A stretch of 64,000 bases of DNA, from the IMG/VR virus record IMGVR_UViG_3300044627_003499, positions 21,711-85,710 of that record; one strand, given 5' to 3'. Shown here piece by piece: positions 15,334-55,632 of this stretch; position 1 is the first letter of the stretch; each line of letters begins with the position of its first letter. The notes under the pieces were generated by a model. It searched no databases. It saw only the letters and a list, made by a program, of their open reading frames with translations, and was not told the origin of the DNA. Source of the stretch: a virus. The translations under genes were made by a program, and so were the position numbers.

Positions 15334-15363
15334 TTATACGCGAATTAAATCAGCAGCAAGTAC
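15334..15363 (-). pseudogene. orphan duplicate 3' end of the HhH gene (VLAADLIRV*)
   Basis: Encodes the same last 9 aa and stop as 15885-15914, with different synonymous codons. Confidence 0.85.
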
Positions 15364-15410
15364 GCCAATAAAACGTTTCAGGTGCTATAGTTTTATTTTG
15401 CTGCTTTGGA

Positions 15411-15854
15411 ATGAAAAGGATTAATCCGGATACGGGGCAGGCCTTTAAGCACGGGGATCGCCGAGAAGACGGCTTTATGTTCACTGGTTACAATTTTAAA
15501 AAAATAAAACAAGACGGCACTTTCCTGGAAGTATGGACAAGCCCTGAGCAAATAAACCACAAGAAAGCGTATGACAAAAAAAGAAGCCAACGCATTTCCA
15601 TAGAAAACAGAAATTGGATGAACGAGTTAAAGGTGAGCCAAGGTTGCGCCTGCTGCGGATACAAAGATCACCCAGAAGGCCTTGACTTTGATCATCTTTA
15701 TGATAAAAAATTTAACATCGGCAGGGGCGGCACGTTAAGCAAAAAAAGACTGGAGAAAGAAATTCAAAAATGCCAAGTTCTTTGTGGAACTTGTCATCAC
15801 ATAAAGACAAGAAATGAGCAAAAATTTAATGAACTAATGAAAAAGAGGGGTTGA
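15411..15854 (+). CDS. free-standing HNH homing endonuclease
   Basis: CACCGY...LDFDH...EIQKCQVLCGTCHHIKT; paralogue of 22244-22705. Confidence 0.85.
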   Translation: MKRINPDTGQAFKHGDRREDGFMFTGYNFKKIKQDGTFLEVWTSPEQINHKKAYDKKRSQRISIENRNWMNELKVSQGCACCGYKDHPEGLDFDHLYDKKFNIGRGGTLSKKRLEKEIQKCQVLCGTCHHIKTRNEQKFNELMKKRG

Positions 15855-15864
15855 AACCCCTCTT
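15843..15864. terminator. bidirectional hairpin terminator carried with the HNH cassette
   Basis: AAGAGGGG-ttgaaa-CCCCTCTT between convergent genes. Confidence 0.65.
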
Positions 15865-15884
15865 GTTTGAGTTATGCATTTAAA

Positions 15885-16295
15885 TTAAACCCTAATCAAA
15901 TCGGCCGCCAGGACCGCATTCCAATCAACACGCTTGATTTGCTTCAGCTGTTCAAGATTATTGAATCTTTCACCCGACAGAGACATCTGAAGGTCTTTAA
16001 TCTCACGTGCTGTTTTAAGACCAATTCCCTTAATGTGATCCGCAAGCATTTGTGCGGTAGCGGAATTGACATTTAAACGGTGATCTGGGGGAAAATCCCG
16101 TGGGTCCTCTTTGGCTGCTTTATCTTTGACTTGAAGAGTTTTTACCTTTTTGGTAGCTTCTTCATCTGGGATAAGTTCAGAGTTGTAAGCGGTGTAAAGG
16201 CGACCGTCCTGATCTTCGACCATGAACCAATCGCCATTATCAAACTCACTAACAACTTTGACGCGAGCGCCAGTTTTTTTGTGCTGGTAAAGCAT
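15885..16295 (-). CDS. helix-hairpin-helix (ComEA-like) DNA-binding protein
   Basis: LNVNSATAQML...IKGIGLKTA..I.......F..LEQL HhH motif. Confidence 0.75.
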   Translation of the reverse strand: MLYQHKKTGARVKVVSEFDNGDWFMVEDQDGRLYTAYNSELIPDEEATKKVKTLQVKDKAAKEDPRDFPPDHRLNVNSATAQMLADHIKGIGLKTAREIKDLQMSLSGERFNNLEQLKQIKRVDWNAVLAADLIRV

Positions 16296-21353: not shown

Positions 21354-21677
21354 TCACGAAACAAATTTGGAATTAAACCCAGCTTGGCCGAGCTGATAAG
21401 CGTCGACCATCCCCTGGATATTACCGATAGCGCCAGGTAAATTGCTGGAACCAAACGCCATAGGGAGCTGAGGGCCAGCTCCGGGCTTGATGCCGCGTCT
21501 CATTAGCTCGTCGTTGAGTTGTTGATTTTGTTGTGTACCGCCTTCATATAAACGACGCAGTTGTTCACCCGACCTACCACCCAACGCACCTGGTGTACGC
21601 CTAATATCAAAACTTGGGTTACCAGCAAGTAAATTACCGGGGGCCCCAGGGACGTTAGATTCTCCGCCGTAATACAT
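21354..21677 (-). CDS. hypothetical protein
   Basis: 107-aa Gly-rich ORF. Confidence 0.55.
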   Translation of the reverse strand: MYYGGESNVPGAPGNLLAGNPSFDIRRTPGALGGRSGEQLRRLYEGGTQQNQQLNDELMRRGIKPGAGPQLPMAFGSSNLPGAIGNIQGMVDAYQLGQAGFNSKFVS

Positions 21678-21701
21678 GTGACTATCTGGTTTTCCCTTAT
21701 T

Positions 21702-21884
21702 CTAGTCCTCTAAAACTTCGTAACCTGAAGCGTCATTTACCTTGGAAATTACGATACCTTCGCCGCGTACATCCCAATTTAAAACATCGCCTTCTTGCCA
21801 ACCCAACTCTTCGATCACTTCGTCGGGCAAAATAATGTATTGATCTCCGTTTTCGTCCTCTTGTACTTCAAGAATGTAGCTCAT
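21702..21884 (-). CDS. AbrB/MazE/SpoVT-type DNA-binding protein
   Basis: IILPDEVIEELGWQEGDVLNW swapped-hairpin motif. Confidence 0.75.
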   Translation of the reverse strand: MSYILEVQEDENGDQYIILPDEVIEELGWQEGDVLNWDVRGEGIVISKVNDASGYEVLED

Positions 21885-22153
21885 TTGGTCAAAAGCTTTT
21901 CCATCAGTTTATCAAGCTTATTATTGATCTCGCGAAAATTGTTGTGCATTTCTTGAATTTCCCTTAAGAAGTCCACCTTGAGCACGTAGTCCAGTGGCAT
22001 GCGGTTGACCTGGTCTTCCAAGAGGTCCACCCTTCGGTTTTGTGAATTAATTCTTTCGCCCAGGCGACTCATAAGCTTACTCATTACCCAGGAGCCACCT
22101 GTCGCAGCTGAGATCACTGCCGTAAGAGCAATAGCTAAATACTCTGGTCCCAC
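21881..22153 (-). CDS. membrane-anchored coiled-coil protein (possible holin/lysis protein)
   Basis: N-terminal hydrophobic helix followed by a coiled coil. Confidence 0.5.
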   Translation of the reverse strand: MGPEYLAIALTAVISAATGGSWVMSKLMSRLGERINSQNRRVDLLEDQVNRMPLDYVLKVDFLREIQEMHNNFREINNKLDKLMEKLLTK

Positions 22154-22182
22154 GAATCCAAGGTTTTTTAATATTCTAAGAG

Positions 22183-22243
22183 TCAGTAATCGAGGTGAAG
22201 CTGTCCTTTTCTTGCTAATCCGGTAACGAGCCAGACGAGAGCG
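22183..22243 (-). pseudogene. orphan duplicate 3' end of the terminase gene (ALVWLVTGLARKGQLHLDY*)
   Basis: Same last 19 aa and stop as the terminase at 22702-22761, with synonymous differences; starts directly after the HNH stop codon. Confidence 0.9.
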
Positions 22244-22705
22244 TTAAAGATTGTGTTTAATACAGAGCTTATTGAAAGCTTCTATATCATGCGTTTTGAT
22301 GCGATGACAGTTGGCGCATAAAACTTGGCATTTTAAAATTTCTTCTTTTATTGTTTCAATGTTTCTAGACGACATTCTTGAAACACCTTCAACTTTAGAG
22401 CTTGGATCAAGATGATCAAAGTCGAGGGCATAAGCACTTTCTTTGTAACCACAGCAAGCGCAACCTTGTTTTAGTTTTTCTTCATGAATAATTTTTATGT
22501 TTTTGCTATGGTTTTCTCTTACACTTTTTTTGTAGTATTCTTTGCGCTTTTCCCATGACTCTGGGGACAGCCAATTCATTTGATATGTACCATCTTTATT
22601 TATGCGTGATTTTCTTCTATAGGCAAGAAATATCCGGCCATCTGGACCAACTTCGCCATACTTCCAAGGCTCGCCTGTTTCTGGGTTTGTTCGTTCCATT
22701 TTCAA
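22244..22705 (-). CDS. free-standing HNH homing endonuclease
   Basis: CACCGY...LDFDH...EILKCQVLCANCHRIKT; AT-rich; paralogue of 15411-15854. Confidence 0.85.
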   Translation of the reverse strand: MKMERTNPETGEPWKYGEVGPDGRIFLAYRRKSRINKDGTYQMNWLSPESWEKRKEYYKKSVRENHSKNIKIIHEEKLKQGCACCGYKESAYALDFDHLDPSSKVEGVSRMSSRNIETIKEEILKCQVLCANCHRIKTHDIEAFNKLCIKHNL

Positions 22706-24231
22706 TAATCAAGATGTAACTGACCTTTTCGGGCAAGGCCTGTTACTAACCATACTAATGCATCAATACAATCGTCGTGACTACTTACGCCAAAGTTGGT
22801 AAGCTCTTCAAACATATTGGTGAAGTTACGAAAACGATTGAAGATGATCTTGCGGTCCTCAAACATTCCCATAATGCCACGGAAACGAGCCAACTTATCT
22901 GCCCTGAAACCTTTGACGGGATGCCAAATTAAATTGTAGAGGCCTTCATTGTTCAAGCAAACACGCTTGAAGTCTGCCTCCAGAGAAGCCTGATACTGTA
23001 CGGCCTCACTCCAAATATCACACGTTGAATAGCTGGGGTAATACAAACCGCTTTGTTCGTCTTTGGCAATCACTGACCAATCATTCAACAACTCCTTGAG
23101 GGCATCAAGTTTTTCAAGGTTACCCATGACGCGAATACGTCGGTAATCAATGATATGAATGCGGTCGCCAATGCGACCACCGAGAATCATAACTGTGTAA
23201 TCGTTTTTCTCTTTAGTGCCAGCGGAGAGGTCAACCCCAACCCCAAGGGCGTCAAACTCCGTTGCAATTTCCGCTTTTACAATTAACTCCGGAGCCAGCG
23301 AAAGTTCGTTCTGCCGGATGACTTGATTCATGTACTGGAACGAGAAAGCAATTGGTGCCTGCCGTTTTTTCTCCTTCAGGTAATCCAATGACCACATGTC
23401 TGGCCAATACGATTCCTCTTCGCCGGAAATGGGATTGTTTTGAATTGCTGAAAGGATAATCTGTTGCCAGTTGTTTTGTTCATTAAATGTTGTGGAGTGA
23501 ATGTCATCGTGTCTGAAGCGAGTACCAAGGCAGATTGCTCGTGCACCTTCAAACATGGTGGGTGCAATCACAGCATTCCAGTTGTCCTGCATCTGTTTCC
23601 TGATGTCAGGGTTGGCAATATCTGCGGCTGACTTGATGGCGTCATCAATCATGACCAAGTGCGAACGCTTGGAAGTCACCGAACCCTTGAGGCCTGCTGC
23701 GCAAAGCGTAAACTGTTCGTCGCCTGTTACGTCAATGCCAGCAAACTTGTGATCAATTGACCAGTACTCATTACTGGTGGCGTTCTTCAGAAGGCGAACT
23801 TTAGGGAAAACTTCTTGGTATCGTTTGCTTTCAATGATGCGTTTAATGGTGGAAGATTTGGAACGAGCGATGTCAACGGTGTAGGACAGATACAGAATCT
23901 GCAGTGGCAACCCTGCGTGCGTATGGATGCCAATGGCCCACGCCGTAAGCAGACCCAACACTGTGGACTTGGCAGAACCCCTGGGCGCCAGGAGATCCAC
24001 ATTGGGACCAGCGATCTTAATGAGGCAACTGCTGTCCTCCTCTGTGACGAAGTGTCGATGCCAGTTGAGGTGATGAGCAGCCGGTGGTTTATCTGCTACG
24101 TATTCACAGAAGAAGCCAAAATCTTCCTGGGCTTTCTTCAGTGCTTCTGCGTTACGTGGCTTGCGTATTTGCTGTCTGCGTGCGGCGGCTTGAGCATTGC
24201 GGCGGTAAGCAAGATGCGTATAGCTTGGCAC
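22702..24231 (-). CDS. terL: terminase large subunit
   Basis: Walker A APRGSAKS, Walker B VMIDD, GTRF..DD, nuclease GVDLS...DYT and HDDCIDAL motifs. Confidence 0.95.
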   Translation of the reverse strand: MPSYTHLAYRRNAQAAARRQQIRKPRNAEALKKAQEDFGFFCEYVADKPPAAHHLNWHRHFVTEEDSSCLIKIAGPNVDLLAPRGSAKSTVLGLLTAWAIGIHTHAGLPLQILYLSYTVDIARSKSSTIKRIIESKRYQEVFPKVRLLKNATSNEYWSIDHKFAGIDVTGDEQFTLCAAGLKGSVTSKRSHLVMIDDAIKSAADIANPDIRKQMQDNWNAVIAPTMFEGARAICLGTRFRHDDIHSTTFNEQNNWQQIILSAIQNNPISGEEESYWPDMWSLDYLKEKKRQAPIAFSFQYMNQVIRQNELSLAPELIVKAEIATEFDALGVGVDLSAGTKEKNDYTVMILGGRIGDRIHIIDYRRIRVMGNLEKLDALKELLNDWSVIAKDEQSGLYYPSYSTCDIWSEAVQYQASLEADFKRVCLNNEGLYNLIWHPVKGFRADKLARFRGIMGMFEDRKIIFNRFRNFTNMFEELTNFGVSSHDDCIDALVWLVTGLARKGQLHLDY

Positions 24232-24263
24232 AGCAGTAATTCAGAGTATTACTGAATACTACC

Positions 24264-24428
24264 TTACTTTTTGTCTTCTTGTTTTTTGGCCTTTTGCTTT
24301 TGATACTTACGTGCTTTTTCTAAAGCGGCCTTACGCTTTTCCTTGTCCGACATCTCAGTGCCGTCTTCTTTCTTTGCATCTTTTTTCTTAAGGTGCGCAA
24401 GAAACTGCGGAGGAACTTTACCAGCCAT
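24264..24428 (-). CDS. small Lys-rich protein (54 aa)
   Basis: MAGKVPPQFLAHLKKKDAKKEDGTEMSDKEKRKAALEKARKY..., read by eye. Confidence 0.6.
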   Translation of the reverse strand: MAGKVPPQFLAHLKKKDAKKEDGTEMSDKEKRKAALEKARKYQKQKAKKQEDKK

Positions 24429-24482
24429 TTAAATCAGTTATCTGTTAACAATGTTGTATTGCACTTTAATATTTTAAGGCAG

Positions 24483-25142
24483 TTATTCGTCAAGTTGCAT
24501 TTTTGCCCACACACTCATGGTCGCTTCTTCCAGGGGGATCTCGATGGGATCATCCTTGAAGACGGATAGGAGTTCACGAATGGCACGATCGGCACCAGCC
24601 ATTAACAGACCTTTGCGATCTTTCATGCCAGTGAATCGGTCAATTTGTTCGATGTGACCACGGATTTCTTTTTGCATTGACGCAATGCGGGCAACGCCTG
24701 CATCACGTTTAACATTGCCGTTCTCAACATCTTCACGGAGTTTGCGAACATCCTCCTGCATCTCGTCAATTTCATACAGAAGTTTTTGACGATGATCGGC
24801 CTTAGGGTAATTGTTTTGGACCCAAAGCTCACACGCAGTAATGCTACCTGTATACCGTAGGAACCGGGCATACAAGTAGACTTCGACTACGGAATAGTTG
24901 TTGCTAGCAAAAGAGCAAAATGTTTCCTGAGTTGACGCATCGAGATTGTCAACCCAGGAATCAAATAACTCAATATCGATAAGCTCGTTGGGCCTGCCCG
25001 TAATCCCGCTCTTCGTCGCGTTGCTTGAACTGCTGGCCTTGTTCGGCAGAGCTACGTTGTTCTTCTGCGCCCTTACCGATGGTTTCACGTTCTTGTTCAC
25101 CAGCAGTCTCCATTTTTTTCTTGGAAAATTCGTAAGCCACAC
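24483..25142 (-). CDS. helical protein, possible terminase small subunit; start uncertain
   Basis: Coiled-coil ORF upstream of terL; 5' part overlaps 24970-25218 in another frame. Confidence 0.5.
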   Translation of the reverse strand: MWLTNFPRKKWRLLVNKNVKPSVRAQKNNVALPNKASSSSNATKSGITGRPNELIDIELFDSWVDNLDASTQETFCSFASNNYSVVEVYLYARFLRYTGSITACELWVQNNYPKADHRQKLLYEIDEMQEDVRKLREDVENGNVKRDAGVARIASMQKEIRGHIEQIDRFTGMKDRKGLLMAGADRAIRELLSVFKDDPIEIPLEEATMSVWAKMQLDE

Positions 25143-41076: not shown

Positions 41077-42654
41077 ATGGAACAATCACAGAAGTATCCA
41101 ACGATTGATTGGACTAAGAACGAATATTACCAAGTGCAACGTGCATTGGAGATCCTCCAACATGTTGTTGATCGTGAATCAAAACGTCACGAGATGAATC
41201 AACATCTCACACACAGCATGCTCAGCATGTTGGAAGATGAGATCATCCCAATGCTCAGTAACGAACTTGACTGTGACGGTGGACCAAGCGATGACGAAAT
41301 CTGCGGTGAACCACCGATGACGGCAGACGAAATGTACACTGCTGCATTGCTTCAGCACCAGGAGCTTCACTCCTAACCAAACATTAAGAGAATCTGTAAG
41401 TCTGCCTTGGATTTTACATTCAGGGTAGACTGACCCTGCTTAACTCATTCCGCAAAACACACATCAGATGTCCGACAAACCACGCATTCCCGACGCACTT
41501 GACATGCAACGTCTGCATGCCATGCAGCTCGTCGCCAAGATGAAAGAAGCTGCTGATAAACAAGGTGTCCAATTCATCGGGGGTTTTGTCACCCCCGATG
41601 GAGAAAAATTTGTAATGACCAATATGGATGAAGATGATCAACGTATGCTCATGCCTGAGGAACTCAAGTGACTAACCAACACCTAATCATCCCACCGCGG
41701 GAGCTACTGGATAAGTGGTTCAACTTACCGATGAGTACTCAGGAAATCTTCGTGGTTGCCGCCCAATGGGGCGCCGACCAGGAGCTAAAGGCGTGCGTCG
41801 GATGGCTTGACCGAAATGGTTACTTCGATTCTGCGCATGACCTCGGCGCCGCCCGCCGCTCTAAGCCGCCGAGCTTAAAGGAGCAAGGGTTGACAGCACT
41901 GAAACTACTGAAGCAACGAACTACAGATCCAAACATTATCGAACCGCTTAGCCAAGCAGTGGAGCAACTCGATGACTAAAGACAAATCACCAATCAACTT
42001 TGACAAGACAATTGCTGGCTTTAACATAACTGAGCACGGCGTTAAGTCTTATACCAAGTCAATTAAACTTGGTCCGTTCCAGGTTACACTCAACGCTCGT
42101 GGCTCTGGTGTCAGAGGATCTATCAGTATCCCTGGCACAGGCATAAGCAAACGTAACATCCAACTGTTCTAATAGCTGGGCATCACCACTACGGTGTGTA
42201 AGTCCCAGCATTTACCTTACGCTCAACTCAACATGGATTCACTCACACTATTTGATCGCATCAATCTTGCAAAGTGTGCACAGTTGCGGGCAGAAGCTCG
42301 CGTCTGTGACAACGACGGATTCCTTGCGGAGTATACCACTGCACGCATGTGGACTAAGTACCGATGCTACATCACCAAAACATATTCATTCGTGGAGTCT
42401 GACTGATGTCTGTCCTTGCAATCGAATCAACCATTATCGATGATGACTATGTCACAGTTGAAGCAATTGTCGATGACATGCGTTGCATCTATGCAGCGAC
42501 TTACTCAAGCCCTGCTGAGTACGCTCCGGCACTTTGCCGAGCTAGTTTCTTCTTGGGTGATGACACCATCCCTACTGATGAAGATGGCTTTTGCCGTTAT
42601 CTTGACGCATGCCAGCTTGAGTGGGAACCCATTGATCTAGGTAACGACGAATGA
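41077..42654 (+). CDS. cluster of small hypothetical proteins (41077-41376, 41468-41671, 41668-41979, 41972-42172, 42233-42406, 42406-42654)
   Basis: Co-oriented coupled ORFs; 41972-42172 resembles DUF4236 (KSIKLGPF...SISIPGTGIS). Confidence 0.55.
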
Positions 42655-42828
42655 TTGGATTCTCCATCGAATTTAAACGCTGGTACATCACAGTGCGTGG
42701 TCCCATGGGCAGGGTATATCTCTGCACTGGGTTTGCCAAACGCCTGCCAGTGTTTTTCTCACCACAACAATCAATTGCATTTGATGACTACATCAATGAT
42801 GATGAAGACTATGGTGTAAGGTAACACC

Positions 42829-42855
42829 ACGTCCTAGGCATGACGTTAAACTGCT
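42829..42855 (+). ncRNA. recurrent H-type pseudoknot motif (copies at 43759-43786, 52654-52680, 55585-55610, 59819-59846)
   Basis: CGTC-CY-RRGCA-T-GACG-TTAAAC-TGCT; GGTCA/TGACC compensatory variant at 59819. Confidence 0.7.
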
Positions 42856-42881
42856 CATCATTTTAATTCAATTGCACACCC

Positions 42882-43754
42882 ATGGACTTTAAAAGTATTA
42901 ATGCTGCTTTTGATATTGATAAAGTGAGGCACCGCGCTGCCATGCATTATCAAAAGTACAAGTCACCTTCAGGTTACCCAAACTGGTTAAAGATACTTGA
43001 CAAAGTTGACATAGCTCATAACGTAATTCATGAAGTCCAAAAGGAAATTGGTAGCTTTGGATTGACACGAGAGTTATCTCAAGAAGAGAATGCTGCCTTG
43101 GTTGTTACAGGCGCTATTGCATCATTGTCTCCACCTATTTGCGTGCATGAAAACATAATAGAAGCGCTTGCAAATACAGATGTTAAGCCAATGGAAACAC
43201 CTGAATATGCATTGCCGTTCTTTATATTTCTTTTGCCAAAAGATTTCAAGTTTACAACTAAACTACCTGACTACCAAGGTTTTGATTTAAATTTTTATGT
43301 AGCATTTGCTGCATGTATTCCTGACTGTGTGAAAGTAACTTACATAAGTGAAACTACTGTTTGTTATGGTTCATACCAATGGACTGAAATTATTACAGAA
43401 AAAGATGGAGCCAAGGAAGAAGATTACATCCTGGAAAAGTTCATGAAAAATCTGATACTTATGTATATGTATGAGCCCAAGTATTTGACAGAAGAAACCA
43501 TTAAGCTACCCACAAAGGGCAAAGGCTTTGGTTCTAGTGAAAAAGATAAGCCATTCCAAATGCGTTGGCTAGGTAAAAACTATAAGCAAGTACGACAAAC
43601 AATTGTATACAAAGACAATACTGTTGATCCAGATAACAAACGATCTGTCCGAGCACATTGGCGTCGTGGACATTGGCACACAGTATGCCATGGCCCCAAA
43701 CACAAACAACGCAAGCAACAGTGGTTTAAACCTGTGTTTGTTAATCAGGATTAA
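42882..43754 (+). CDS. hypothetical protein with C-terminal RAHWRRGHW motif
   Basis: 290-aa AT-rich ORF flanked by direct repeats. Confidence 0.7.
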   Translation: MDFKSINAAFDIDKVRHRAAMHYQKYKSPSGYPNWLKILDKVDIAHNVIHEVQKEIGSFGLTRELSQEENAALVVTGAIASLSPPICVHENIIEALANTDVKPMETPEYALPFFIFLLPKDFKFTTKLPDYQGFDLNFYVAFAACIPDCVKVTYISETTVCYGSYQWTEIITEKDGAKEEDYILEKFMKNLILMYMYEPKYLTEETIKLPTKGKGFGSSEKDKPFQMRWLGKNYKQVRQTIVYKDNTVDPDNKRSVRAHWRRGHWHTVCHGPKHKQRKQQWFKPVFVNQD

Positions 43755-43821
43755 CACCACGTCCCAAGCATGACGTTAAACTGCTTACACTTTACACTAC
43801 GAACTCAACCCTGAATTCACC

Positions 43822-45564
43822 ATGGAATTTCGTCTTCCGACCAATCTTCAGAACGAACTTATCCCTTACGATCCAACGCTCAAGAAGTTGGTACGTACTG
43901 AGAAGCAAGCCAAAACAACTACCAAGAAATCTAAATATCCACTTGGTAATCCACCACAGTTAATGCCATTGGATATTGTAAGAGAATCGTTGCAGCAAGA
44001 AGCAGTTGATACTATTAATGCATCAGCTGCTCCTGATAGGCACCATGAATTCAGGTTGCCTGTCGGTAACATTCCCAACGTAGAGTACGTTGTCCATGCA
44101 GTGATGTACCACTACGAAGGCGTATGGGTAGCAGCATGGCTGCCACCTAAAGGCAAGGAGAATGACTATGTATACGGCTACACTTACTGCTTTAAGGACA
44201 CAGCCGCTACCCGTAAGATGCTCGATTACCAGGTTAAAAATCACCTGGAACAATACACTATATCAGAAATTGGTCGCTCTAATTATTACTACAAGACCGA
44301 ATTAGTTACCAAGCAAAACATCATTGATGGTAATGATATAACCCGTTGGATGTATAGCGTTGGTAGCTGGAACGCAAAGGGTAGGAACATTGCATCAATG
44401 CTTGGGCGTTTTAGGGATGCACTTAAGAAAACAATTCCAACCTGGTCAGACGGTCGCGGTATCTTTGATCGCATTAAAACTTCTCGTAACCTATACAGCT
44501 TGCTTAGTGAAGATCGTAACTTGAATTGTAACTATTGGATCAAATATGAAAAAGATTTCGGGCAGACTAAAGAACAATGGTCTGCATCAGTTGCATCTTT
44601 GTTCCACATGATTGATTACTATGTAAATGTGCCTCACTATAATCCGCTCAGCGAATTTGTACGCGTTCGTCATATCCTTGATAAACCATTCTTCCGCAAG
44701 TGGATCCAAGATAAATGTAATGAGATTAATACAAAGTACCAAGATGAATCAGTAGATAGTATGGCTACAATCCGCAAGCCTTGGTTGTTAATCAAAGAGC
44801 TTGTCAAGGGTATTCATTATGTCCATTCAATCTGGGGTGATGCAGTTCCACTGGATTACTACCAGTCAAACATTGATAACTTGATGGGCATTGAATCTTG
44901 GAACGCTGTACCAACAATTGTTATTACGTGGCTAGCTAAACATATGCCAGTTGCTTCATTCTTCCAAATGCGTTGTAAGTATTACTTGGAACAGAAGGCT
45001 GCTCCACAACGTAGTTACGACTATGAGCATCAGCTTGGCATATATCAGTACCGATTCCGTGAATGGGAAGATACATGCAGCATGCTTAATCAAATCCTCA
45101 GCAACGACAAAACAATTGATCCGCCTAAGCGTTGGCGCATCACTGAATTCCATGACCATGTGCAAGCAGAAGCATGGAAGATTCAAAATCCCAATCACAA
45201 ACTTCCACAAGATCTATTCCCTGCACCAATCAAGGTGCAGCACGCTGATCAGAACTGGTCATTCTTCCAGCCATTTGACACCCATCAATTGGCACAGTGG
45301 GGCCAGGCCGTACGTAACTGCGTGGGTAATGCCAGCAGTTATGCCGAAAATGTACGCAAGAAACAACACTTCATTGTGTTGTGTATGGTCGATGGTGCAC
45401 CACGCTTTACCATCCAACTCGAAGTCAACATGGGACTTATGAGTGTCAAACAGATTGTTGGGATGCACAACTCCAGGCTGACGGAAGCAGACCGTGATCT
45501 GTACTCAGCAGCTTTCCGTCAGGCCTTGCAATCCCGCGAGAAACAGCTAAGCTCTAATAGCTGA
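43822..45564 (+). CDS. PcfJ-like domain protein
   Basis: C-terminal L..WG..VRNCVG...Y...V motif and FTIQL...VKQI.G..N. Confidence 0.75.
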   Translation: MEFRLPTNLQNELIPYDPTLKKLVRTEKQAKTTTKKSKYPLGNPPQLMPLDIVRESLQQEAVDTINASAAPDRHHEFRLPVGNIPNVEYVVHAVMYHYEGVWVAAWLPPKGKENDYVYGYTYCFKDTAATRKMLDYQVKNHLEQYTISEIGRSNYYYKTELVTKQNIIDGNDITRWMYSVGSWNAKGRNIASMLGRFRDALKKTIPTWSDGRGIFDRIKTSRNLYSLLSEDRNLNCNYWIKYEKDFGQTKEQWSASVASLFHMIDYYVNVPHYNPLSEFVRVRHILDKPFFRKWIQDKCNEINTKYQDESVDSMATIRKPWLLIKELVKGIHYVHSIWGDAVPLDYYQSNIDNLMGIESWNAVPTIVITWLAKHMPVASFFQMRCKYYLEQKAAPQRSYDYEHQLGIYQYRFREWEDTCSMLNQILSNDKTIDPPKRWRITEFHDHVQAEAWKIQNPNHKLPQDLFPAPIKVQHADQNWSFFQPFDTHQLAQWGQAVRNCVGNASSYAENVRKKQHFIVLCMVDGAPRFTIQLEVNMGLMSVKQIVGMHNSRLTEADRDLYSAAFRQALQSREKQLSSNS

Positions 45565-45612
45565 AGCCACAGCAGGGCCATCGTATTCTCGTTATAGGTG
45601 GCCCTTTCTCTA

Positions 45613-45840
45613 ATGCCTGATTACACTGACGATCAACTACTTGCCATGGCAATGGCAAACCTTGGTGAGTACATTCATGACAACTCACCGCATTACATTC
45701 TGATTGAAGAAGATCCTCGCAATGAGGATGACTACGACACGTGGGACTATGGCACTGAGCCATTACCACATGATCACACTTGGCAACACACATCAATTGA
45801 TGTGAGTGTAAGCCCAAGTGAGGGGGACATGGCGGAATAG
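45613..45840 (+). CDS. small acidic hypothetical protein
   Basis: ORF whose 3' end overlaps the tRNA. Confidence 0.45.
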   Translation: MPDYTDDQLLAMAMANLGEYIHDNSPHYILIEEDPRNEDDYDTWDYGTEPLPHDHTWQHTSIDVSVSPSEGDMAE

Positions 45841-45908
45841 GTAGACGCAACGGACTTAAAATCCGTAGGCCATTGGCTGTGAGAGTTCAAGTCTCTCTGT
45901 CCCTACCA
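45823..45908 (+). tRNA. trnL: tRNA-Leu(UAA), intronless, with encoded CCA
   Basis: GGGGACA/TGTCCCT acceptor, D-arm with GG, ACGGA-CTTAAAA-TCCGT anticodon arm, long variable arm, GAGAG-TTCAAGT-CTCTC T-arm, A-CCA. Confidence 0.95.
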
Positions 45909-45930
45909 ACCCACACAAGAGCTCAACACC

Positions 45931-46688
45931 ATGTCAATTTTTGCTTGCTTTAAGTACATCATCCCTGAGTTCCATGCATTCAGTGATGATGACAATCGTT
46001 ACAACCTTGGTGCAACATGGACTGCACAAGATGGACTTAAGGATTATCACAACCTTGAACTAAGGTATGTTCACAACTCAGAGCGGCTTGCGCTCCAGGG
46101 GGATCCACAGCCTGATGGATCATGGCGTTACGTGGAAGCCAACGGTTCCGTTCATACCATCTCACCTGAACGTGCCAAGCATTTCATGGAACAGACTCAT
46201 CAGCATGCCACGATCATGTGTGCCATGCTCGACAAGCTTAAAGAGTCAGGGGTTATGAACGAACCACTGGACACCCAAGCCAGCCCAGCTTAAACTCAGT
46301 ACCTACTCACTACCCTCCGTTACTAACAGCGGAAAGTTTACTCATGGACACACAACCTTCAAATGATTACATTGACCTTGACCTTGTTGACAAGGTGCTT
46401 GCATTAGTACCAGAGCAGGCATGGTCTTTAGTATTGACCGCTATTGTTAGCGGCATTGTTGATGAGATGCCATCGACTGTGCTCCAGGAATTGACTGGAG
46501 ATGTAGAAAGATTTGACCGTGCTGAAGAAATCTTAACTTCGTATTACAGTGGCACAGATCAACGCAATGCTTTAATCCAAGATGCATTCAAACTTATTGG
46601 TACAGAAAACACATTGCATCTTTTAGATGCAATGCAATTAAACAAGTATGTTGAATCTCTTGAACTTAACACTGAAACCAATGACTGA
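45931..46688 (+). CDS. two hypothetical proteins (45931-46293, 46344-46688)
   Basis: Co-oriented ORFs with plausible starts. Confidence 0.6.
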
Positions 46689-46905
46689 CCAACCGATATC
46701 CCCCGCCGCTCAGGCGGTTTACAGCGCAGTGCTTGAAATTTGCCCTGCGCCTGCCGATGAGATTGCCGCCGCCGCCCTGCGAGCTGCTGCTGATCAGGTG
46801 GTGCCGCTTCATATCTGTGGCACTAACGCGACCCGTGCTCAAACCCGCCTTGGAATACGCCACAAACTGCTCGCTCTCGCCGCCGAACTGGAGGGTACCA
46901 AATGA
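46681..46905 (+). CDS. small protein of the LSPAAQAV...LRAAA...AAELE family (paralogues 48315-48536, 48840-49163, 52342-52554)
   Basis: Shared N- and C-terminal motifs among four ORFs. Confidence 0.6.
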   Translation: MTDQPISPAAQAVYSAVLEICPAPADEIAAAALRAAADQVVPLHICGTNATRAQTRLGIRHKLLALAAELEGTK

Positions 46906-47603
46906 CTGACGCCATCATGCTTACCAAGAACACAGACCAACTTCGCCAACAAGTAGCAGCTCACGTCGCTGCTGACTCCATCACTCAAGGCGTTTACTGG
47001 GACGAAAGCAACAAACGCGGTTGCTTTATTGGGTGCTTGGCGCACTCTGAAGATCCAGGGATTAACGAGCAAACCTATGGCTTGCCTGTAATGGTGCAGC
47101 GTATTGCTGAGTCGATCTTTGAAGCGTTGTCTGACGATGAAGCCAAAGCATTTTTTGCTGCATTGCCTGATGCAGTGAGCTGCGATGGCAAAGACTTAAT
47201 CAAAGTCGGCTGGCAGTTCTTGGCTGCTGAGCTGCGGGCATTGCCTGAGCAACCTGCCGAGGTTCAGGTAGTTATTGATCCTGTTATTGCAGGTATAGAT
47301 CTGCTTGCCAGTGGTCAGGAATGGGCTGTTGCTGATGCTGCTGCTGTTGCTGATGCTGCTGCTGATGCTGATGCTGCTGCTTGGGCTGCTGATGCTGCTG
47401 CTAATGCTGCTCGTGCTGCTGCTGCTGCTGCTGCTGCTCGTGCTGATTGGGCTGCTGATGCTGCTGCTTGGGCTGCTGATGCTGCTGCTGCTGCTAATGG
47501 TGCTGTTTGGACTGCTGCTGCTGATGCTGCTCGTCGTCGGCAACGTGACACTCTGCTGGCTCTGATTAGCCAAGCGCCAGTGCTGGAGGTAAGTAATGAC
47601 TGA
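46902..47603 (+). CDS. hypothetical protein with Ala-rich repeat tract, copy 1
   Basis: GCFIGCLAH core; AAAWAADAAA repeats. Confidence 0.75.
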   Translation: MTDAIMLTKNTDQLRQQVAAHVAADSITQGVYWDESNKRGCFIGCLAHSEDPGINEQTYGLPVMVQRIAESIFEALSDDEAKAFFAALPDAVSCDGKDLIKVGWQFLAAELRALPEQPAEVQVVIDPVIAGIDLLASGQEWAVADAAAVADAAADADAAAWAADAAANAARAAAAAAAARADWAADAAAWAADAAAAANGAVWTAAADAARRRQRDTLLALISQAPVLEVSND

Positions 47604-48847
47604 CCAAGAACTGATAGAGCTTATGCCCGAGACCATGCGAGACGAGTTCAGCTATGCCGCCAGTGTTTGCAGCGATGCGACTGGCGGTAAAGTCAAGCCC
47701 GGCATCTTCCGTGTGGCGCTTAACACCGCTGCACTGGAGTATGCCCGTGCTGTGCTAAGCTCTGCCACTAAGCCGTCGCTACTGGAGCGGGAGGCTGCGC
47801 GATGAACACCATCACCCCACCGCCGGAGCTGGTGCAGCAGTGGATCAAGGAGTGTGACCGGCCAGACGATCCATGCTGGCAGGAGTATGAGCAAGACATC
47901 GCCATCCGCGCCGCCCAATGGGGTGCCGACCAGGAGCTGGAGGCGTGTTGTGAGTGGACCCAGGGGTATGCCGAATGTGGCGACTCACTTCGCGCCGCCC
48001 GCCGCCCCAAGCCCCCGAGCTTGAAGAAGCAGGCGCTTAAAGCAGTTAACGAAATGTCTGACTGCATGAGCGCAGGATTTGTACCGAAACGCAGCGATCT
48101 TGACGCTATCCGCCGCGCCCTGGAGGCGCTACCTGAATGAAGCCAGAGCATAAACGGGCTCTCCGTTGCTTTCTTCTTGAGAAACTCCGCGAGGCGACGT
48201 ATCTCCAGTTAAGCGAACTAGCCGAAACTCATGATTGCCAGCCGTTTGATATGGCTGTACAATTTGAGATTGAGGTTGGACGTATTGAAAAATTCTTTTG
48301 TTACCCGCACTACGATGACTGAACCTCTCTCCCCCGCTGCGCAATCAGTCCTAGATGCCTATTGGAAGAGTTCATGGGATCTTCCCTTGCAGCACGAAGA
48401 CCGTTACGCCATAGCCGCCGTCCTGCGAGCTGCTGCAAAACAAAGTACCTTTGCCGACGTAGCGGTAAATAAAACGATTGAGGTAGTCCCTGTTGACATT
48501 CTCCTCGCCATCGCCGCCGAGCTGGAGGGCCAATGAAACTCGAAATTAAACTCACCGACGAGCGCTACAGCCAGGGATCCGTTGACGAACCCGGCGAAAT
48601 GACCACCACCTGGGAGGCCGACATGGACGACTGTTCAGTTCATGCTTGGTTCAAGGTCTTTGAGAGCGTCCTTGGAGCCGCCGGCATGACCGAAAAGCTC
48701 ATCATGCGGGGCGCCTGTCAGCTTGCCTTCAATGAATACCGTGCAATCGAGGACATGGTGAAGCTAAGCAAGGACTACGACCTGGACTTTGCTGCCGAGC
48801 GGGAGGGTACCAGTTGTTCCACTTATCTAACAGATCCCAATGACTGA
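47596..48847 (+). CDS. cluster of small hypothetical proteins (47596-47805, 47802-48140, 48137-48322, 48315-48536, 48533-48847)
   Basis: ATGA-coupled ORFs; 47802 belongs to the AAQWGADQELEAC family. Confidence 0.6.
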
Positions 48848-49159
48848 CATCACCCCAAACGACCTCAGCCACCTCAGCGATGAGGCCTTCGAGGCCCTCT
48901 GCCCGCAGGGTTATCACGCCCCAGGACCGGAGCCATTATCACCCGCTGCTCAGGCGGTGCTGGATGCTATTAACAAAGAACTTGACGAAGCCCCTTGGGA
49001 TGTGAGTTTTTTGGCAGGTGTTAGTGCATCCGCCGCCCTGCGAGCTGCTGCTGATCAGGTGGTGCCAGCCACGGAGTACAAATCTTATCAAGTGCGCATG
49101 ATCGCTATGAATGTTCGCCACAAACTGCTCGCTCTCGCCGCCGAACTGGAGGGTACCAA

Positions 49160-49834
49160 ATGACTGACGCCATCATGCTTACCAAGAACACAGACCAACT
49201 TCGCCAACAAGTAGCAGCTCACGTCGCTGCTGACTCCATCACTCAAGGCGTTTACTGGGACGAAAGCAACAAACGCGGTTGCTTTATTGGGTGCTTGGCG
49301 CACTCTGAAGATCCAGGGATTAACGAGCAAACCTATGGCTTGCCTGTAATGGTGCAGCGTATTGCTGAGTCGATCTTTGAAGCGTTGTCTGACGATGAAG
49401 CCAAAGCATTTTTTGCTGCATTGCCTGATGCAGTGAGCTGCGATGGCAAAGACTTAATCAAAGTCGGCTGGCAGTTCTTGGCTGCTGAGCTGCGGGCATT
49501 GCCTGAGCAACCTGCCGAGGTTCAGGTAGTTATTGATCCTGTTATTGCAGGTATAGATCTGCTTGCCAGTGGTCAGGAATGGGCTGTTGCTGATGCTGCT
49601 GCTGTTGCTGATGCTGCTGCTGATGCTGATGCTGCTGCTTGGGTTGCTGATGCTGCTGCTTGGGCTGCTGATGCTGCTGCTAATGCTGCTCGTGCTGATT
49701 GGGCTGCTGCTGCTGCTCGTGCTGCTTGGGCTGCTGATGCTGCTGCTGCTGATGCTGATGCTCGTCGTCGGCAACGTGACACTCTGCTGGCTCTGATTAG
49801 CCAAACGCCAGTGCTGGAGGGTGGCAATGACTGA
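49160..49834 (+). CDS. hypothetical protein with Ala-rich repeat tract, copy 2
   Basis: Near-identical to 46902-47603 except in the repeat tract. Confidence 0.75.
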   Translation: MTDAIMLTKNTDQLRQQVAAHVAADSITQGVYWDESNKRGCFIGCLAHSEDPGINEQTYGLPVMVQRIAESIFEALSDDEAKAFFAALPDAVSCDGKDLIKVGWQFLAAELRALPEQPAEVQVVIDPVIAGIDLLASGQEWAVADAAAVADAAADADAAAWVADAAAWAADAAANAARADWAAAAARAAWAADAAAADADARRRQRDTLLALISQTPVLEGGND

Positions 49835-50282
49835 CCGCGAACTGATCGAACGCCTGCTGTTCCTCGCTGAAACGGCTGAGGACTACTTCATCTACTGCGA
49901 ACTGCGGGAGCTGGCTGCCGCCCTGGAGGCCCAGCCCGACCCGCAGGGGCTAATGCCCGAAGTAGATGACATTCTGCGTTTGGCTGAAATCATCCGTAGG
50001 GTTGACGGCAACCACGACAAAGGCGCTGCTGCGTTGGCGGAGGCAATACTGTCACACCCTGACTGCAGCTATGACAGCCCCGCCATTGAGCCCGAGCCGC
50101 AGGGGCCGAGCCTCGCCCATGAGGCATACGTCGCTTTTGTTCAAATCTGCAAGGGCAATTCGGATGACGCCGGCACCTATGAGGCTGACGAAGAACTTGT
50201 CAGACGCGCTCTTAAGCGGCTCAGTGATCTGGAGGTGGGCCGCCCCGCCATCGAGCCAGTGCCTGGGGCAAAAGGTGAATAA
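49827..50282 (+). CDS. mosaic hypothetical protein
   Basis: Repeated PEPQG and PAIEP linkers. Confidence 0.55.
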   Translation: MTDRELIERLLFLAETAEDYFIYCELRELAAALEAQPDPQGLMPEVDDILRLAEIIRRVDGNHDKGAAALAEAILSHPDCSYDSPAIEPEPQGPSLAHEAYVAFVQICKGNSDDAGTYEADEELVRRALKRLSDLEVGRPAIEPVPGAKGE

Positions 50283-50629
50283 TGAAGTGTCGCAAATGCA
50301 ATAGCAAGAACACACGTGTTATTTGCACTGATCACTTTGATACATTCACTAAGCGTTACTGCCGATGTTTTAATTGCAATTCAAAGTTTCGAACTGTTGA
50401 ATACTATGAAGAACGGAAGCCTGGCCCCCCGCCTGGCACACCAAGAACACGTAACATAACGCGTGGTGAGTCCCATGGTTCTGCAGTATTTCAAGAGAAG
50501 GACATCCGCATGATGCGCACTCTCTATCAACAAGGCACAACCTTGGTATCCATCGCAACTAAATACGGGACAAGTTCTTCTTACGTGTCACGCATTGTTA
50601 ACTACAAATCATGGAGCCACATTAAATGA
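50282..50629 (+). CDS. zinc-ribbon (NrdR N-terminal-like) plus HTH protein
   Basis: MKCRKC...TRV...RYCRCFNC..KFRTVE; C-terminal IATKYGTSSSYVSRIV. Confidence 0.7.
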   Translation: MKCRKCNSKNTRVICTDHFDTFTKRYCRCFNCNSKFRTVEYYEERKPGPPPGTPRTRNITRGESHGSAVFQEKDIRMMRTLYQQGTTLVSIATKYGTSSSYVSRIVNYKSWSHIK

Positions 50630-50922
50630 CCGCTGCTAAGTACGACTTCAACATTGGTGATCGTGTTGCCGAGCGTCCCAAGTCACATGGGTTGTTTGCT
50701 GTAAGTAAAGAGGCTGAAGAGATTGTTAAACGCAATAGGTCTCAAAGGTATGGCACCATCGTTGGCTATGACACACAGCTAAACAAAAGTGGTAAACGCA
50801 TGAATATGTTGCTTGTGCAATGGGATCACCTCAAGTCCCCAATGAAACATGCAAGGTGCAGGATCTGTCCCATTGATCAGCTTGCTACATTGACAAAACA
50901 AATCATTGTCCCAGGGGAATGA
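50626..50922 (+). CDS. hypothetical protein
   Basis: FNIGDRV SH3-like start. Confidence 0.6.
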   Translation: MTAAKYDFNIGDRVAERPKSHGLFAVSKEAEEIVKRNRSQRYGTIVGYDTQLNKSGKRMNMLLVQWDHLKSPMKHARCRICPIDQLATLTKQIIVPGE

Positions 50923-51575
50923 CCATGGATGTATCACTTGTTTGGGTCACGCCTCAAGCTGAAGAGTTGATCACACGCATGGCTCGGGTGTCAGCTCCAA
51001 AAAATCAAGGGAATATGGAGACTGCCCCTAAGTTGTTGCGTTATTTGATTACGCACCAGCATTGGAGCCCGTACGAAATGGCTAACATGTGCGTTGAAAT
51101 CAACACAACACGTGCAATATCTGCACAAGTTATTCGCCATCGTTCGTTTAGCTTTCAAGAATTTAGTCAGCGCTACGCAGATATCAATGAGCTTGGCTCA
51201 GCTGTTATCCCACACCTGCGTCGTCAAGACCACAGCAATAGACAAAACAGTATCGACGACTTGACATCGGAAGATGTTGCCAACTTCTATCGGCGCATTA
51301 GTCAACTCTTTGAGGATACTGAGCATCTCTATCGTGAGATGGTAAGTCATGGCATTGCCAAAGAGTGCGCCAGGAACATCTTGCCGATGGGTACGCAGAC
51401 TAAGATTTACATGAACGGTTCGCTCCGTTCGTGGATACATTACCTGCAGCTAAGAACTTCCAATGGGACCCAAGCAGAACACAAACAAATCGCAGAAGAA
51501 ATCAAACGAATCTTCTGTGCACAATTCCCAGTCATTGGAGAAGCTGTGTTCTCAGAAGATCCAGGGATTGCCTGA
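50919..51575 (+). CDS. thyX: FAD-dependent thymidylate synthase
   Basis: H.HWSPYE, RHRSFSFQEFSQRY, AKECAR.ILP and GSLRSWIHY motifs. Confidence 0.95.
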   Translation: MTMDVSLVWVTPQAEELITRMARVSAPKNQGNMETAPKLLRYLITHQHWSPYEMANMCVEINTTRAISAQVIRHRSFSFQEFSQRYADINELGSAVIPHLRRQDHSNRQNSIDDLTSEDVANFYRRISQLFEDTEHLYREMVSHGIAKECARNILPMGTQTKIYMNGSLRSWIHYLQLRTSNGTQAEHKQIAEEIKRIFCAQFPVIGEAVFSEDPGIA

Positions 51576-51791
51576 GGTTTCTTCTGGTAAGCCTGTTGAA
51601 TCAGACAACAACTTCAGCAGGTTGCTTTTTTAATTCCTTGATGGCACGCTTGGACTCTACATCCTTGCGTATTTGTTTTTTCTTTTGGTTTGCCAGGTAC
51701 ACAAGCAGTGCTTGATCCATTATTCTGTATCTGTTGTTACTGAAAGTTTACTCCAATTGATGTACACCATGTCGTTCACTGTGTAACACAA

Positions 51792-52554
51792 ATGACACCA
51801 AGCGAATACCACCGCCTCGCACGTTTTAATTGTTTGCAAGAGTATGATTGCTGCGCTAAACCAGATGACTTTATTGAAGTAACCGAATGGTACAACGGTG
51901 AAGGTTTTGATGTACACCTTAGTACCAGTGCTGGTGAACAGCGTATGTCACTTAGCTGGGGTGAGTACCAAGCATTGAAAACAACCCTTGGTGACTGGGC
52001 TGAAAACAATCTGGAGGATGAAAAATGACTAATCAACACCCCATCACCTTACCGCCAGCAATTCTGCAAAAATTACGCAGCACAACTCCAACTTCAGGTT
52101 GGCATCTTGATGCTTGGATTGCTGAGCAAGCCGCCCAATGGGGTGCCGACCAGGAGCTGGAGGCGTGTTGTGAGTGGGTCCAAGGTTATGCCGAATATGG
52201 CGACTCACTTCGCGCCGCCCGCCGCCCCAAGCCCCCGAGCTTGAAGGAACAGGCGCTTGAGGTATTTGAAGCCTTGATCCATGGCGATGCAAGTGGGCTT
52301 GACGTTGGAGTAATCCGCCGCGCCCTGGAGGCGCTACCTGAATGACTGAACTATCACCACAAGCGCAGGCGGTACTATATGGATTTCGTGCTGTGCCAAA
52401 TCTCATGGATGGGCCGTCTATTGCCGGTGCCCTGCGAGCTGCTGCAAAACAAAGTATCTTTGCCGACGTAGCGATAAATAAAACGATTGAGGTAGTCCCT
52501 GTTGACATCCTCCTCGCCATAGCCGTCGAGCTGGAGGGTGTGACCTCACGGTGA
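51792..52554 (+). CDS. three small hypothetical proteins (51792-52028, 52025-52345, 52342-52554)
   Basis: Coupled ORFs; the latter two reuse modules seen at 47.8-48.5 kb. Confidence 0.6.
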
Positions 52555-52618
52555 TCAAGCCGCAAGGTCATTCGTTTACCAGCCAGGGGAAGCAGCAGAA
52601 ACCCTGACTCCCTCGGGG

Positions 52619-52648
52619 TTGACGCTGCTCTGCTACACCCCATATAAT
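52619..52648 (+). promoter_or_regulatory. sigma70-type promoter
   Basis: TTGACG-N18-TATAAT; the predicted TSS coincides with the pseudoknot start at about 52654. Confidence 0.7.
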
Positions 52649-52701
52649 CATACACGTCCTAAGCATGACGTTAAACTGCTAGTCAACTCAACTCAACTAC
52701 C

Positions 52702-53469
52702 ATGAAACTTCTTAAGTTTTCTACCGGCAACGGCAAGCTCAAGAATCGTTTGATCTTCTCGCTGCCAGCGGGATACGCCTGCCCTCACGCAGGTGTGTGT
52801 AAGACCATGGCCGATCGTGCCACTGGTGCCATCATTGATCTGCCACAACACAACGGCACAACAGCAGATGAGTTCCGCTGCTTTGCTGCCATGGCAGAAG
52901 TCAGGCCAAACGTACGGGAGGCACGCTGGCACAACTGGGATCTGTTGCGTGGTGTTATGTATGGCAATGGAAACCAAGCGTTGTTGTTGCGTGATCTAAT
53001 TGACATGTCGCTTAGCATGCAACCACCAAAAGAACTGGTGCGTGTCCACGAGTCAGGAGATTTCTGGACTGAGAACTATCTCAAGGCATGGCTGATGGTT
53101 GCCAAGCAACGACCCAAGCAAAAGTTCTACGCTTATACCAAGTCCCTTGGGATGTGGTACAACCTTAAAGATTTGATACCATCCAACTTTTATCTCACCG
53201 CATCTTACGGTGGTACGTTGGATTACATGCTGCCCAAGTATCCAGACGTTTACACACGCATTGCGTATGTGGTGTACACGGAAGAGGAAGCAGCAGAGCG
53301 TGGACTTGAGATCGACCATGACGATAGCCACTGCCTTGGTGACAAGTCATTCGCACTCTTGGTTCACGGGTCCCAGAGGGCAGGTACTCCTGCATCTCAA
53401 GCGTTGTCTCAACGCAAGAAGGATGGGAAGTTTGTTGGGTACGGTAAATCAATGCAGAAAACATCCTGA
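52702..53469 (+). CDS. Gene product 88 (GP88) family protein
   Basis: FSLPAG..CP....C...CFA, VRVHESGDF and FYAYTKS motifs. Confidence 0.7.
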   Translation: MKLLKFSTGNGKLKNRLIFSLPAGYACPHAGVCKTMADRATGAIIDLPQHNGTTADEFRCFAAMAEVRPNVREARWHNWDLLRGVMYGNGNQALLLRDLIDMSLSMQPPKELVRVHESGDFWTENYLKAWLMVAKQRPKQKFYAYTKSLGMWYNLKDLIPSNFYLTASYGGTLDYMLPKYPDVYTRIAYVVYTEEEAAERGLEIDHDDSHCLGDKSFALLVHGSQRAGTPASQALSQRKKDGKFVGYGKSMQKTS

Positions 53470-53525
53470 ATATCTTGCATTGACAAATAGGTCTGATAAC
53501 ATCTGACAGTTATCTTCTTGTTCAG

Positions 53526-55563: not shown

Positions 55564-55632
55564 CCATTCATAAGAATGGGTGTCCGTCCTAGGCATGACG
55601 TTAAACTGCTGTAACACTATCCTTTTGATCCC

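Follow-up and report, generated by a model that had tools for sequence, protein, structure and literature searches.

The 64,000-nt stretch of DNA analyzed here (the window) comprises bases 21711-85710 of the IMG/VR virus record IMGVR_UViG_3300044627_003499, which is 85.7 kb long and rated complete by CheckV, and its host genome is that of a freshwater (lake) cyanophage resembling phage S-EIV1. Within the window, the terminase gene terL is directly followed by a free-standing gene for an HNH endonuclease and then by a second, untranslated copy of the last codons of terL. We interpret this arrangement as a mobile cassette, comprised of a replacement terL tail and an HNH homing-endonuclease gene, that is inserted between Asp490 and Ala491 of TerL and spreads by homing, and we put the probability of this reading at about 80%. 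The reading draws on the architecture of the locus, a fixed junction, insertion polymorphism, the native origin of the orphaned tail, joint transfer of tail and HNH gene, and purifying selection on the HNH gene, all of which can be observed in the genomes compared.

Two copies of the terL tail flank the HNH gene

The 509-aa TerL is encoded by one uninterrupted open reading frame (ORF) at 22702-24231 on the minus strand. Codons 1-490 (22762-24231, minus strand), recognized from the ORF and from Pfam, form the native body of the gene and extend as far as the Asp in the HDDCID nuclease motif; the Pfam family Terminase_6C matches TerL residues 331-495 with an E value of 7.4e-9. The last 19 codons and a TGA stop (22702-22761, minus strand), encoding ALVWLVTGLARKGQLHLDY, are the active tail borne by the cassette. 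Next comes the free-standing HNH gene (22244-22699, minus strand; 151 aa), likely starting at the ATG at 22697-22699, 2 nt past the terL stop, and ending with TAA at 22244-22246. One nt after the HNH stop lies the native terL tail, again 19 codons and TGA (22183-22242, minus strand), which is untranslated and which we call the orphan. In relatives, the HNH start overlaps the terL stop (TAATG or TGATG), an arrangement that suggests that translation of the HNH gene is coupled to that of terL.

The initial annotation of this DNA had reported that the final 19 codons of terL and the stop are duplicated after the HNH gene with 100% protein identity and 15 of 19 codons changed, and our recount agrees. 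Base differences between the two tails number 19 of 60 and affect 15 of 19 sense codons, all of them being synonymous, and only TGG, AAA, CAG, GAT and the stop codon are identical in both. An exact repeat of 19 residues plus stop would be expected by chance far less than once in 64 kb. When the window was scanned in six frames for shared 8-mers, the only other peptide repeat flanking an HNH gene, among the matches listed, was VLAADLIRV followed by a stop (15334-15363 and 15885-15914), which is described below; the other 8-mer repeats listed belong to DNA-level repeats or to the motif that the HNH genes have in common. Base composition also divides the locus, with a G+C content at third codon positions (GC3) of 21% in the active tail and 30% in the HNH gene, compared to 53% in the terL body and 47% in the orphan. 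The codons just before the junction read TGT ATT GAT in HNH-bearing genomes, but TGT GTT GAC or ACG GTT GAT in HNH-less ones. Thus, while the repeat itself does begin at 22761, as initially annotated, the edge of the foreign tract probably lies 6 nt earlier, at about 22767, to judge from ATT vs GTT.

The HNH frame lies outside the terL frame, with its own start and stop, and is not in phase with its host gene. We found no Rfam match at E values up to 1 within 21500-24500. An intron- or intein-borne nuclease is ruled out by the lack of an Rfam match together with the separate start and stop of the HNH gene outside an uninterrupted terL frame. The insertion had been described initially as splicing-free, and this holds because no intron RNA was found and terL has a stop of its own. 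A search for a promoter or terminator belonging to the HNH gene showed no excess of either, with 4 promoter-like sites compared to 2.6 in shuffled sequences and 1 terminator-like site compared to 1.0.

HNH-less relatives carry a single tail resembling the orphan

Searching IMG/VR with terL yielded 597 relatives, of which we examined the best 80. Only one of these 80 (L005) has the HNH gene and 79 lack it, and it is also absent from the isolate S-EIV1. Sixteen HNH-less loci (L006-L021) encode a TerL that is 99% identical and have one tail each. These single tails match the orphan at 52-57 of 60 bases and the active tail at only 41-42 of 60. This is the pattern that the initial annotation had anticipated for relatives without the HNH gene, and the opposite outcome, in which such relatives would carry the upstream version, was not seen. 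When aligned to empty alleles, the window is continuous through terL to 22702 and resumes at 22236-22247. Although the terL body is 96-97% identical at the nucleotide level to those of HNH-less relatives, identity to HNH-less genomes falls sharply at the D|A junction; in comparison with five HNH-less relatives, the body shows approximately 0-9 mismatches per 100 nt, whereas the 60-nt tail has 18-19.

Only two contigs in IMG/VR, both of which carry the HNH gene, contain an exact match to the 33-nt allele in the active tail of the window. Looking for the donor lineage of this tail, we found no HNH-less IMG/VR contig with the exact 33-nt allele, and the HNH-less tails nearest to it match at 47-50 of 60 bases (50 in L073, 48 in L050 and 48 in a remnant in L066). 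The initial annotation had called the active tail synonymously recoded. The changes are indeed all synonymous, but among natural HNH-less tails that encode the same protein sequence, as many as 15 of 60 bases are unlike those of the orphan, and most of the recoding is therefore ordinary divergence between lineages. A foreign natural allele is a better description, with selection visible mainly at codons 2-3.

All 79 HNH-less terL loci are single-tailed except L066. There, two terL tails lie 25 nt apart (L066:5465-5609) and the spacer is the start of the HNH ORF (MERLNP...), so that an upstream tail of the active (TTAGTA) type is followed by about 25 nt of HNH start and then by the orphan. We read this locus as a decayed cassette. 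L025 has a single tail whose 5′ part reads TTAGTATGG and whose 3′ part is native-like; this tail looks chimeric, as expected from loss of the cassette via recombination between the two tails.

The active tail and the HNH gene move together

Searching with the HNH sequence yielded 8 loci, and searching with an HNH alignment yielded 482 relatives, 80 of which were examined. The loci of the HNH clade for which both flanks are present number 21 (the window, L090, L091 and L103-L120), with HNH identities of 62-99%; L121 and L138 were left out as one of their flanks is too short. In 21 of 21, the order is terL body, tail, HNH gene, second tail, and the junction is in the same position, after the Asp of HDDxxD. 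The presence of this layout in 20 further IMG/VR contigs, as well as in Logan contigs from four sequencing runs, rules out an assembly artefact. We also scored 52 more distant HNH loci for duplicate tails. Only L161 (score of 59, with an internal stop) and L158 (43) exceeded the 95th percentile of the null, which was 41 and was inflated (maximum 95) because the null sometimes pairs two terL cassettes, and neither of the two repeats looks like a gene tail. Two of the loci show peculiarities near the tails: L116 has approximately 180 nt of extra DNA between the HNH gene and the orphan (L116:1965-2146), and L106 (1426-1485) has residue changes in its active tail beside the junction (ALVYTV vs ALVWLV).

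The active tail and the HNH gene move as one block between diverged genomes. In L107 and L108, compared in 60-nt bins, the flanks are 63-90% identical (mean of approximately 75%) while the active tail and HNH gene are 87-95% identical, and identity steps exactly at the junction and at the orphan. The proportion of synonymous differences (pS) for this pair is 0.78 in the terL body, where synonymous sites are saturated, and 0.32 in the HNH gene, where they are not. Between the window and L005, the cassettes differ at 6 of 518 bases (1.2%), compared to 44 of 1470 in the terL body (p = 0.02 against the cassette, Fisher test) and 87 of 2683 across the flanks as a whole (p = 0.006 against the cassette), or a flank divergence of 3.0-3.2%. 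These two genomes are not mutual nearest relatives in terL, their 44 differences comparing with 36 to the HNH-less L006 and L018. The fall in identity at the junction, the shared layout of the 21 loci and the transfer of tail and HNH gene as a block all agree with the initial proposal that an element had inserted in terL together with a replacement tail.

Logan contigs from four of 22 listed lake-water runs (X5, X7, X10 and X13) were analyzed with likeness set to 90%. Run X5 contained the occupied form only. In X7, X10 and X13, cassette contigs with a depth of 7-9 were accompanied by contigs with depths of 2.6-34.7 that skip 519-534 nt at the cassette. This hints at coexistence of occupied and cassette-skipping forms in three lake runs, and it agrees with the polymorphism seen at the level of contigs.

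Tail codons and the HNH protein

In 18 distinct pairs of active and orphan tails, 220 codons differ at positions 2-19, of which 203 are synonymous and 17 change the residue. As the differences are nearly all synonymous, both copies appear to have diverged while they were working terL tails. The clearest contrast is at codons 2-3. There, TTAGTA is found in 14 of 18 active tails, in 0 of 18 orphans and in 3 of 56 distinct HNH-less tails, one of these three being the L066 remnant. Conversely, CTCGTY is present at the same codons in 9 of 18 orphans vs 10 of 56 HNH-less tails (p = 0.012). The tails of L107 are nearly identical in their mid-part and differ at 5′ codons 2-3. From these codon patterns, TTAGTA may be an immunity mark of the occupied allele, and CTCGTY is likely part of the preferred target of the HNH enzyme. 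The first codon of the orphan is changed in 10 of 18 pairs, and every orphan that we saw is intact to its stop codon.

The HNH protein matches Pfam family PF01844 (HNH), not HNH_3, and also matches PHROG 3106 with an E value of 1e-30. Residues C80, C83, H96, C128, C131 and H132 are invariant across 8 HNH relatives. The ratio of nonsynonymous to synonymous change (dN/dS) ranges from 0.03 to 0.24 wherever synonymous sites are unsaturated. Such conservation points to a functional protein under purifying selection.

A second cassette in the window and further HNH copies

At 15334-15914 of the window, a paralogous HNH gene does to a gene encoding a 136-aa protein what the HNH gene next to terL does to terL. 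The host gene (15885-16295, minus strand) is unrelated to terL and ends with VLAADLIRV and a stop. Its final 9 codons and stop (15885-15914, minus strand) are the active tail of this cassette, which is unlike the orphan in 7 of 9 codons. The paralogous HNH (15411-15854, plus strand; 147 aa) is 42-43% identical and is in the opposite orientation to the host gene, and beyond it lies the orphan native tail (15334-15363, minus strand), which is the same at 30 of 30 bases as the empty-site tail of genome G001. The 520-nt block is absent from G001 and G002, which thus provide natural empty sites, and 8 of 8 related loci (L122-L129) are two-tailed. A GC-rich hairpin is located between the HNH stop and the stop of the host gene.

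A third HNH is found outside the window (G000:C1:4073-4285, corresponding to L004:1495-1743, minus strand). It has 82 aa, is 36% identical over the motif and is convergent with a gene for a 202-aa protein; a 162-aa HNH-like ORF is present at L004:375-863. Relatives vary in content at this third site, and no clear empty site was found among those compared. In addition, L091 has a second HNH of the same family (L091:4907-5338; 48% identical) between the small genes that follow terL and the portal gene, which shows that insertion sites of the family are not limited to the two in the window.

Proposed mechanism and its alternatives

The 19-codon tail of the cassette completes terL in frame. We propose that the HNH gene is translated just after the terL stop and that the original tail was pushed downstream, where it became the untranslated orphan. 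During co-infection, the HNH enzyme would cut or nick empty alleles near the junction, CTCGTY alleles being the likely target, and the break would be repaired by copying the cassette from the occupied genome, with the terL body serving as the left homology arm and the orphan and the DNA downstream of it as the right arm. The imported tail would keep terL whole and, by differing at the target (typically through TTAGTA at codons 2-3), would make the occupied allele resistant. Each homing event could strand a fresh native tail, and this may be the reason why orphans look young even though the HNH clade is old. The element would behave like an intron-borne homing gene, except that it brings a spare 3′ gene end and needs no splicing. 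A broader version of this proposal, for which we see roughly even odds, is that the HNH family is specialized for invasion of the last 9-20 codons of essential phage genes, that the bases distinguishing TTAGTA from CTCGTY are the determinant of immunity, that the orphan acts as the right homology arm, and that gene-end replacement is general.

Several points weigh against homing of such a cassette. Cleavage, a cut position near the HDD..D motif and resistance of the occupied allele are predictions from sequence comparisons. The Pfam HNH score is barely over the cutoff (22.4 vs 21.4 bits), and a sequence profile search of the PDB matched no solved HNH at E values up to 1, its sole match (E value of 0.079) being irrelevant. 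The association of TTAGTA with active tails is inflated by their shared descent, because of which the counts are not independent; moreover, the active tails of L106, L113 and L114 are of the CTCGT type and that of L112 has TTAATA. The HNH clade is old, with saturated synonymous sites, yet all of the orphans are intact, so that either frequent re-homing or constraint on the orphan is needed: orphans either have not yet had time to decay or cannot decay. In several relatives, though not in the window, the HNH frame runs 19-40 nt into the orphan, which amounts to a constraint there. Finally, the joints seen in Logan contigs carry little weight alone, since they have only 28-33 nt on a side, at a likeness setting of 90%.

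The alternative that best withstands the data, although we consider it unlikely, is that the cassette is mobile via ordinary phage recombination and not through its own nuclease, with the HNH gene being kept for some other benefit, such as degrading the DNA of competitors, or merely hitch-hiking. The population does recombine extensively, and terL distances within it are star-like, at 36-62 differences per 1470 nt. The purifying selection on the HNH gene would fit any useful function, and nuclease-driven homing is a prediction from sequence. However, the insertion point is identical in 21 of 21 loci, and such a fixed junction within a codon-level repeat is not expected from ordinary recombination. 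In addition, orphans are enriched for one allele type, and active tails share a conserved 6-nt difference beside the junction. The fixed junction, the allele enrichment and the 6-nt mark are all predicted by target-site specificity combined with self-immunity.

It is far less probable that the HNH protein is a packaging accessory of the terminase, comparable to HK97 gp74 or to GVE2-like HrdP, that is not selfish and next to which the duplication of the tail is incidental. Its gene does lie directly after terL and upstream of a probable portal gene, and its Pfam match is to PF01844 and not to HNH_3. Furthermore, a conserved HNH gene between terL and the portal gene has been described in all 89 Skunavirus genomes and assigned to packaging (PMC12724721). 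Against a packaging role, the HNH gene is missing from 79 of 80 examined terL relatives, 16 of them with a 99% identical TerL, and is apparently the minority form in three lake samples; a paralogue has the same layout in an unrelated gene; the HNH gene transfers as a block with the tail; and the profile search matched no solved HNH. The near-identical HNH-less genomes G001 and G002 are complete according to CheckV, which implies that packaging proceeds normally without the HNH protein. A packaging HNH is ruled out by this absence from near-identical genomes, and because near-identical phages do without it, we do not consider it to be of the Skunavirus kind.

We give still less credence to the idea that the tail was duplicated in place, the HNH gene landed between the copies and the copies then drifted apart, with no foreign tail involved. 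Such an origin would explain why both copies encode the identical protein, and the near-identical mid-parts of the L107 tails could reflect either a local origin or gene conversion. However, an untranslated copy should gain non-synonymous changes and indels, whereas 19 of 19 base differences in the window and 203 of 220 codon differences in the 18 pairs are synonymous. The orphan matches living tails of HNH-less relatives, the GC3 of the active tail is like that of the HNH gene and not that of terL, and active tail and HNH gene are common to genomes whose terL bodies are synonymously saturated. Duplication in place is ruled out by the synonymous-only divergence together with the match of the orphan to living tails.

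Equally improbable is a function for the orphan itself, either through a +1 shift at the HNH stop (CTT TAA C) that would lead to its translation or as a signal needed by the gene downstream: every orphan seen retains its full length up to the stop, that of the window is in the +1 frame 1 nt after the CTT-TAA-C context, and the HNH frame enters the orphan in several relatives, but homing that re-creates orphans from living tails also predicts intact orphans, no shift site is conserved, the first orphan codon is changed in more than half of the pairs, and the programmed +1 frameshift is ruled out by the variable frame and spacing between HNH stop and orphan among relatives, which range from a gap of 0-1 nt to an overlap of 19-40 nt and, in L116, the extra DNA mentioned above.

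Source genome and gene neighborhood

Within the phage collection, the terL region has a single matching record, S-EIV1 (KJ410740), a Synechococcus phage from a high-arctic lake, with 72% query coverage and 73.6% identity, and the stretch is present in lake-water metagenomes. The S-EIV1 terL (L001:3050-5590) encodes 846 aa, compared to 509 aa in the window. The difference lies in an extra block of approximately 337 aa that comes after ...KRSHL, has Cys as its first residue and ends with ...HN before a Cys. This block looks like an intein in the ATPase region, in which case terL carries a selfish element of another kind in the isolate.

Two genes downstream of the orphan tail, at 21702-21884 (minus strand), the window encodes a 60-aa protein that matches Pfam MazE_antitoxin / AbrB-like (E value of 3.7e-8) and is kept in relatives. 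Farther along, at about 41750-55610, long DNA-level repeats are shared among several places (for example, 46774-47340 with 49035-49600, and 47910-48500 with 52130-52510), giving runs of identical 8-mers in all frames. These repeats are probably paralogous genes.

Comparison with known systems

The Seg and Mob endonucleases of phage T4 exemplify intronless homing, in which a free-standing nuclease gene sits beside an essential conserved gene and is variably present among relatives; its spread is attributed to double-strand-break repair accompanied by co-conversion of the flanks, and differences in target sequence provide immunity. The cyanophage cassette is similar in having a free-standing nuclease gene by an essential gene and a patchy distribution among relatives. 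Unlike the Seg and Mob genes, which lie between genes, convert adjacent sequence and leave no duplicate, it is inserted inside a coding region, where a spare tail and the old one are both retained.

Other selfish nucleases occupy conserved sites within essential genes without destroying them, and the cassette shares this property with group I introns, inteins, fractured genes, in which homing genes reside in split phage genes (PMC2677866), and the bypass element of T4 gene 60, another homing gene inside a coding region (as outlined in bioRxiv 10.1101/2022.08.31.505936). In contrast to these, the cassette requires no splicing, splitting or ribosomal bypass. If the broader proposal above is correct, gene-end replacement would be an overlooked fifth way into phage coding regions, beside introns, inteins, gene splitting and translational bypass. 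The Skunavirus GVE2-like HrdP resembles the protein studied here in being a small HNH encoded between terL and the portal gene. However, it is present in every genome of the group (PMC12724721), whereas the cyanophage gene is present in 1 of the 80 relatives examined and is flanked by a duplicated gene end.

The cassette has consequences beyond its own locus. Selfish nucleases are able to substitute foreign alleles for the ends of essential phage genes and so produce mosaic terL genes, and a terL tree that spans the junction combines two histories; annotation faces a related hazard from short untranslated gene ends behind HNH genes. Natural empty, occupied and decayed alleles, together with a candidate 6-nt immunity mark, make target recognition and self-immunity directly testable. 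The likely target adjoins the catalytic HDDxxD motif of the terminase nuclease.

The closest parallel comes from the gene hybrids associated with mobile ORFs (mORFs) in fungal mitochondria, reported for atp6 of Allomyces macrogynus, for atp6, atp9, cox2 and nad3 of Glomus sp., for atp9 of Rhizopus and for cox2 of Mortierella (PMC3630166). As described there, an endonuclease ORF lies in the 3′ part of an essential gene, a foreign C-terminus completes the gene in frame, and the native C*-terminus remains downstream and is the one that most resembles element-free relatives, with high protein identity and low nucleotide identity between the two copies (PMC3630166). All of these features have their counterpart in the cyanophage cassette. 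Our search of the literature, from which subscription-only papers and supplementary files were outside the scope, found no phage report of an endonuclease cassette accompanied by duplication of a gene end; as far as we found, the layout is well described in fungal mitochondria and seemingly undescribed in phages. The cyanophage case differs in being located in a phage genome and in using an HNH nuclease. Its nuclease ORF is separate, after the terL stop (or on the opposite strand in the second case), and not in phase with the host gene as reported for Glomus atp6 and nad3 (PMC3630166), and the replaced piece is short, with 19 codons in terL and 9 in the second case. In addition, the movement of the block from lineage to lineage can be seen here in many independent contigs. 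We conclude that the cyanophage cassette is a real and well-populated natural case of gene-end replacement by a homing-endonuclease cassette in an essential gene, and that it links phage biology to a phenomenon so far documented in fungal mitochondria.

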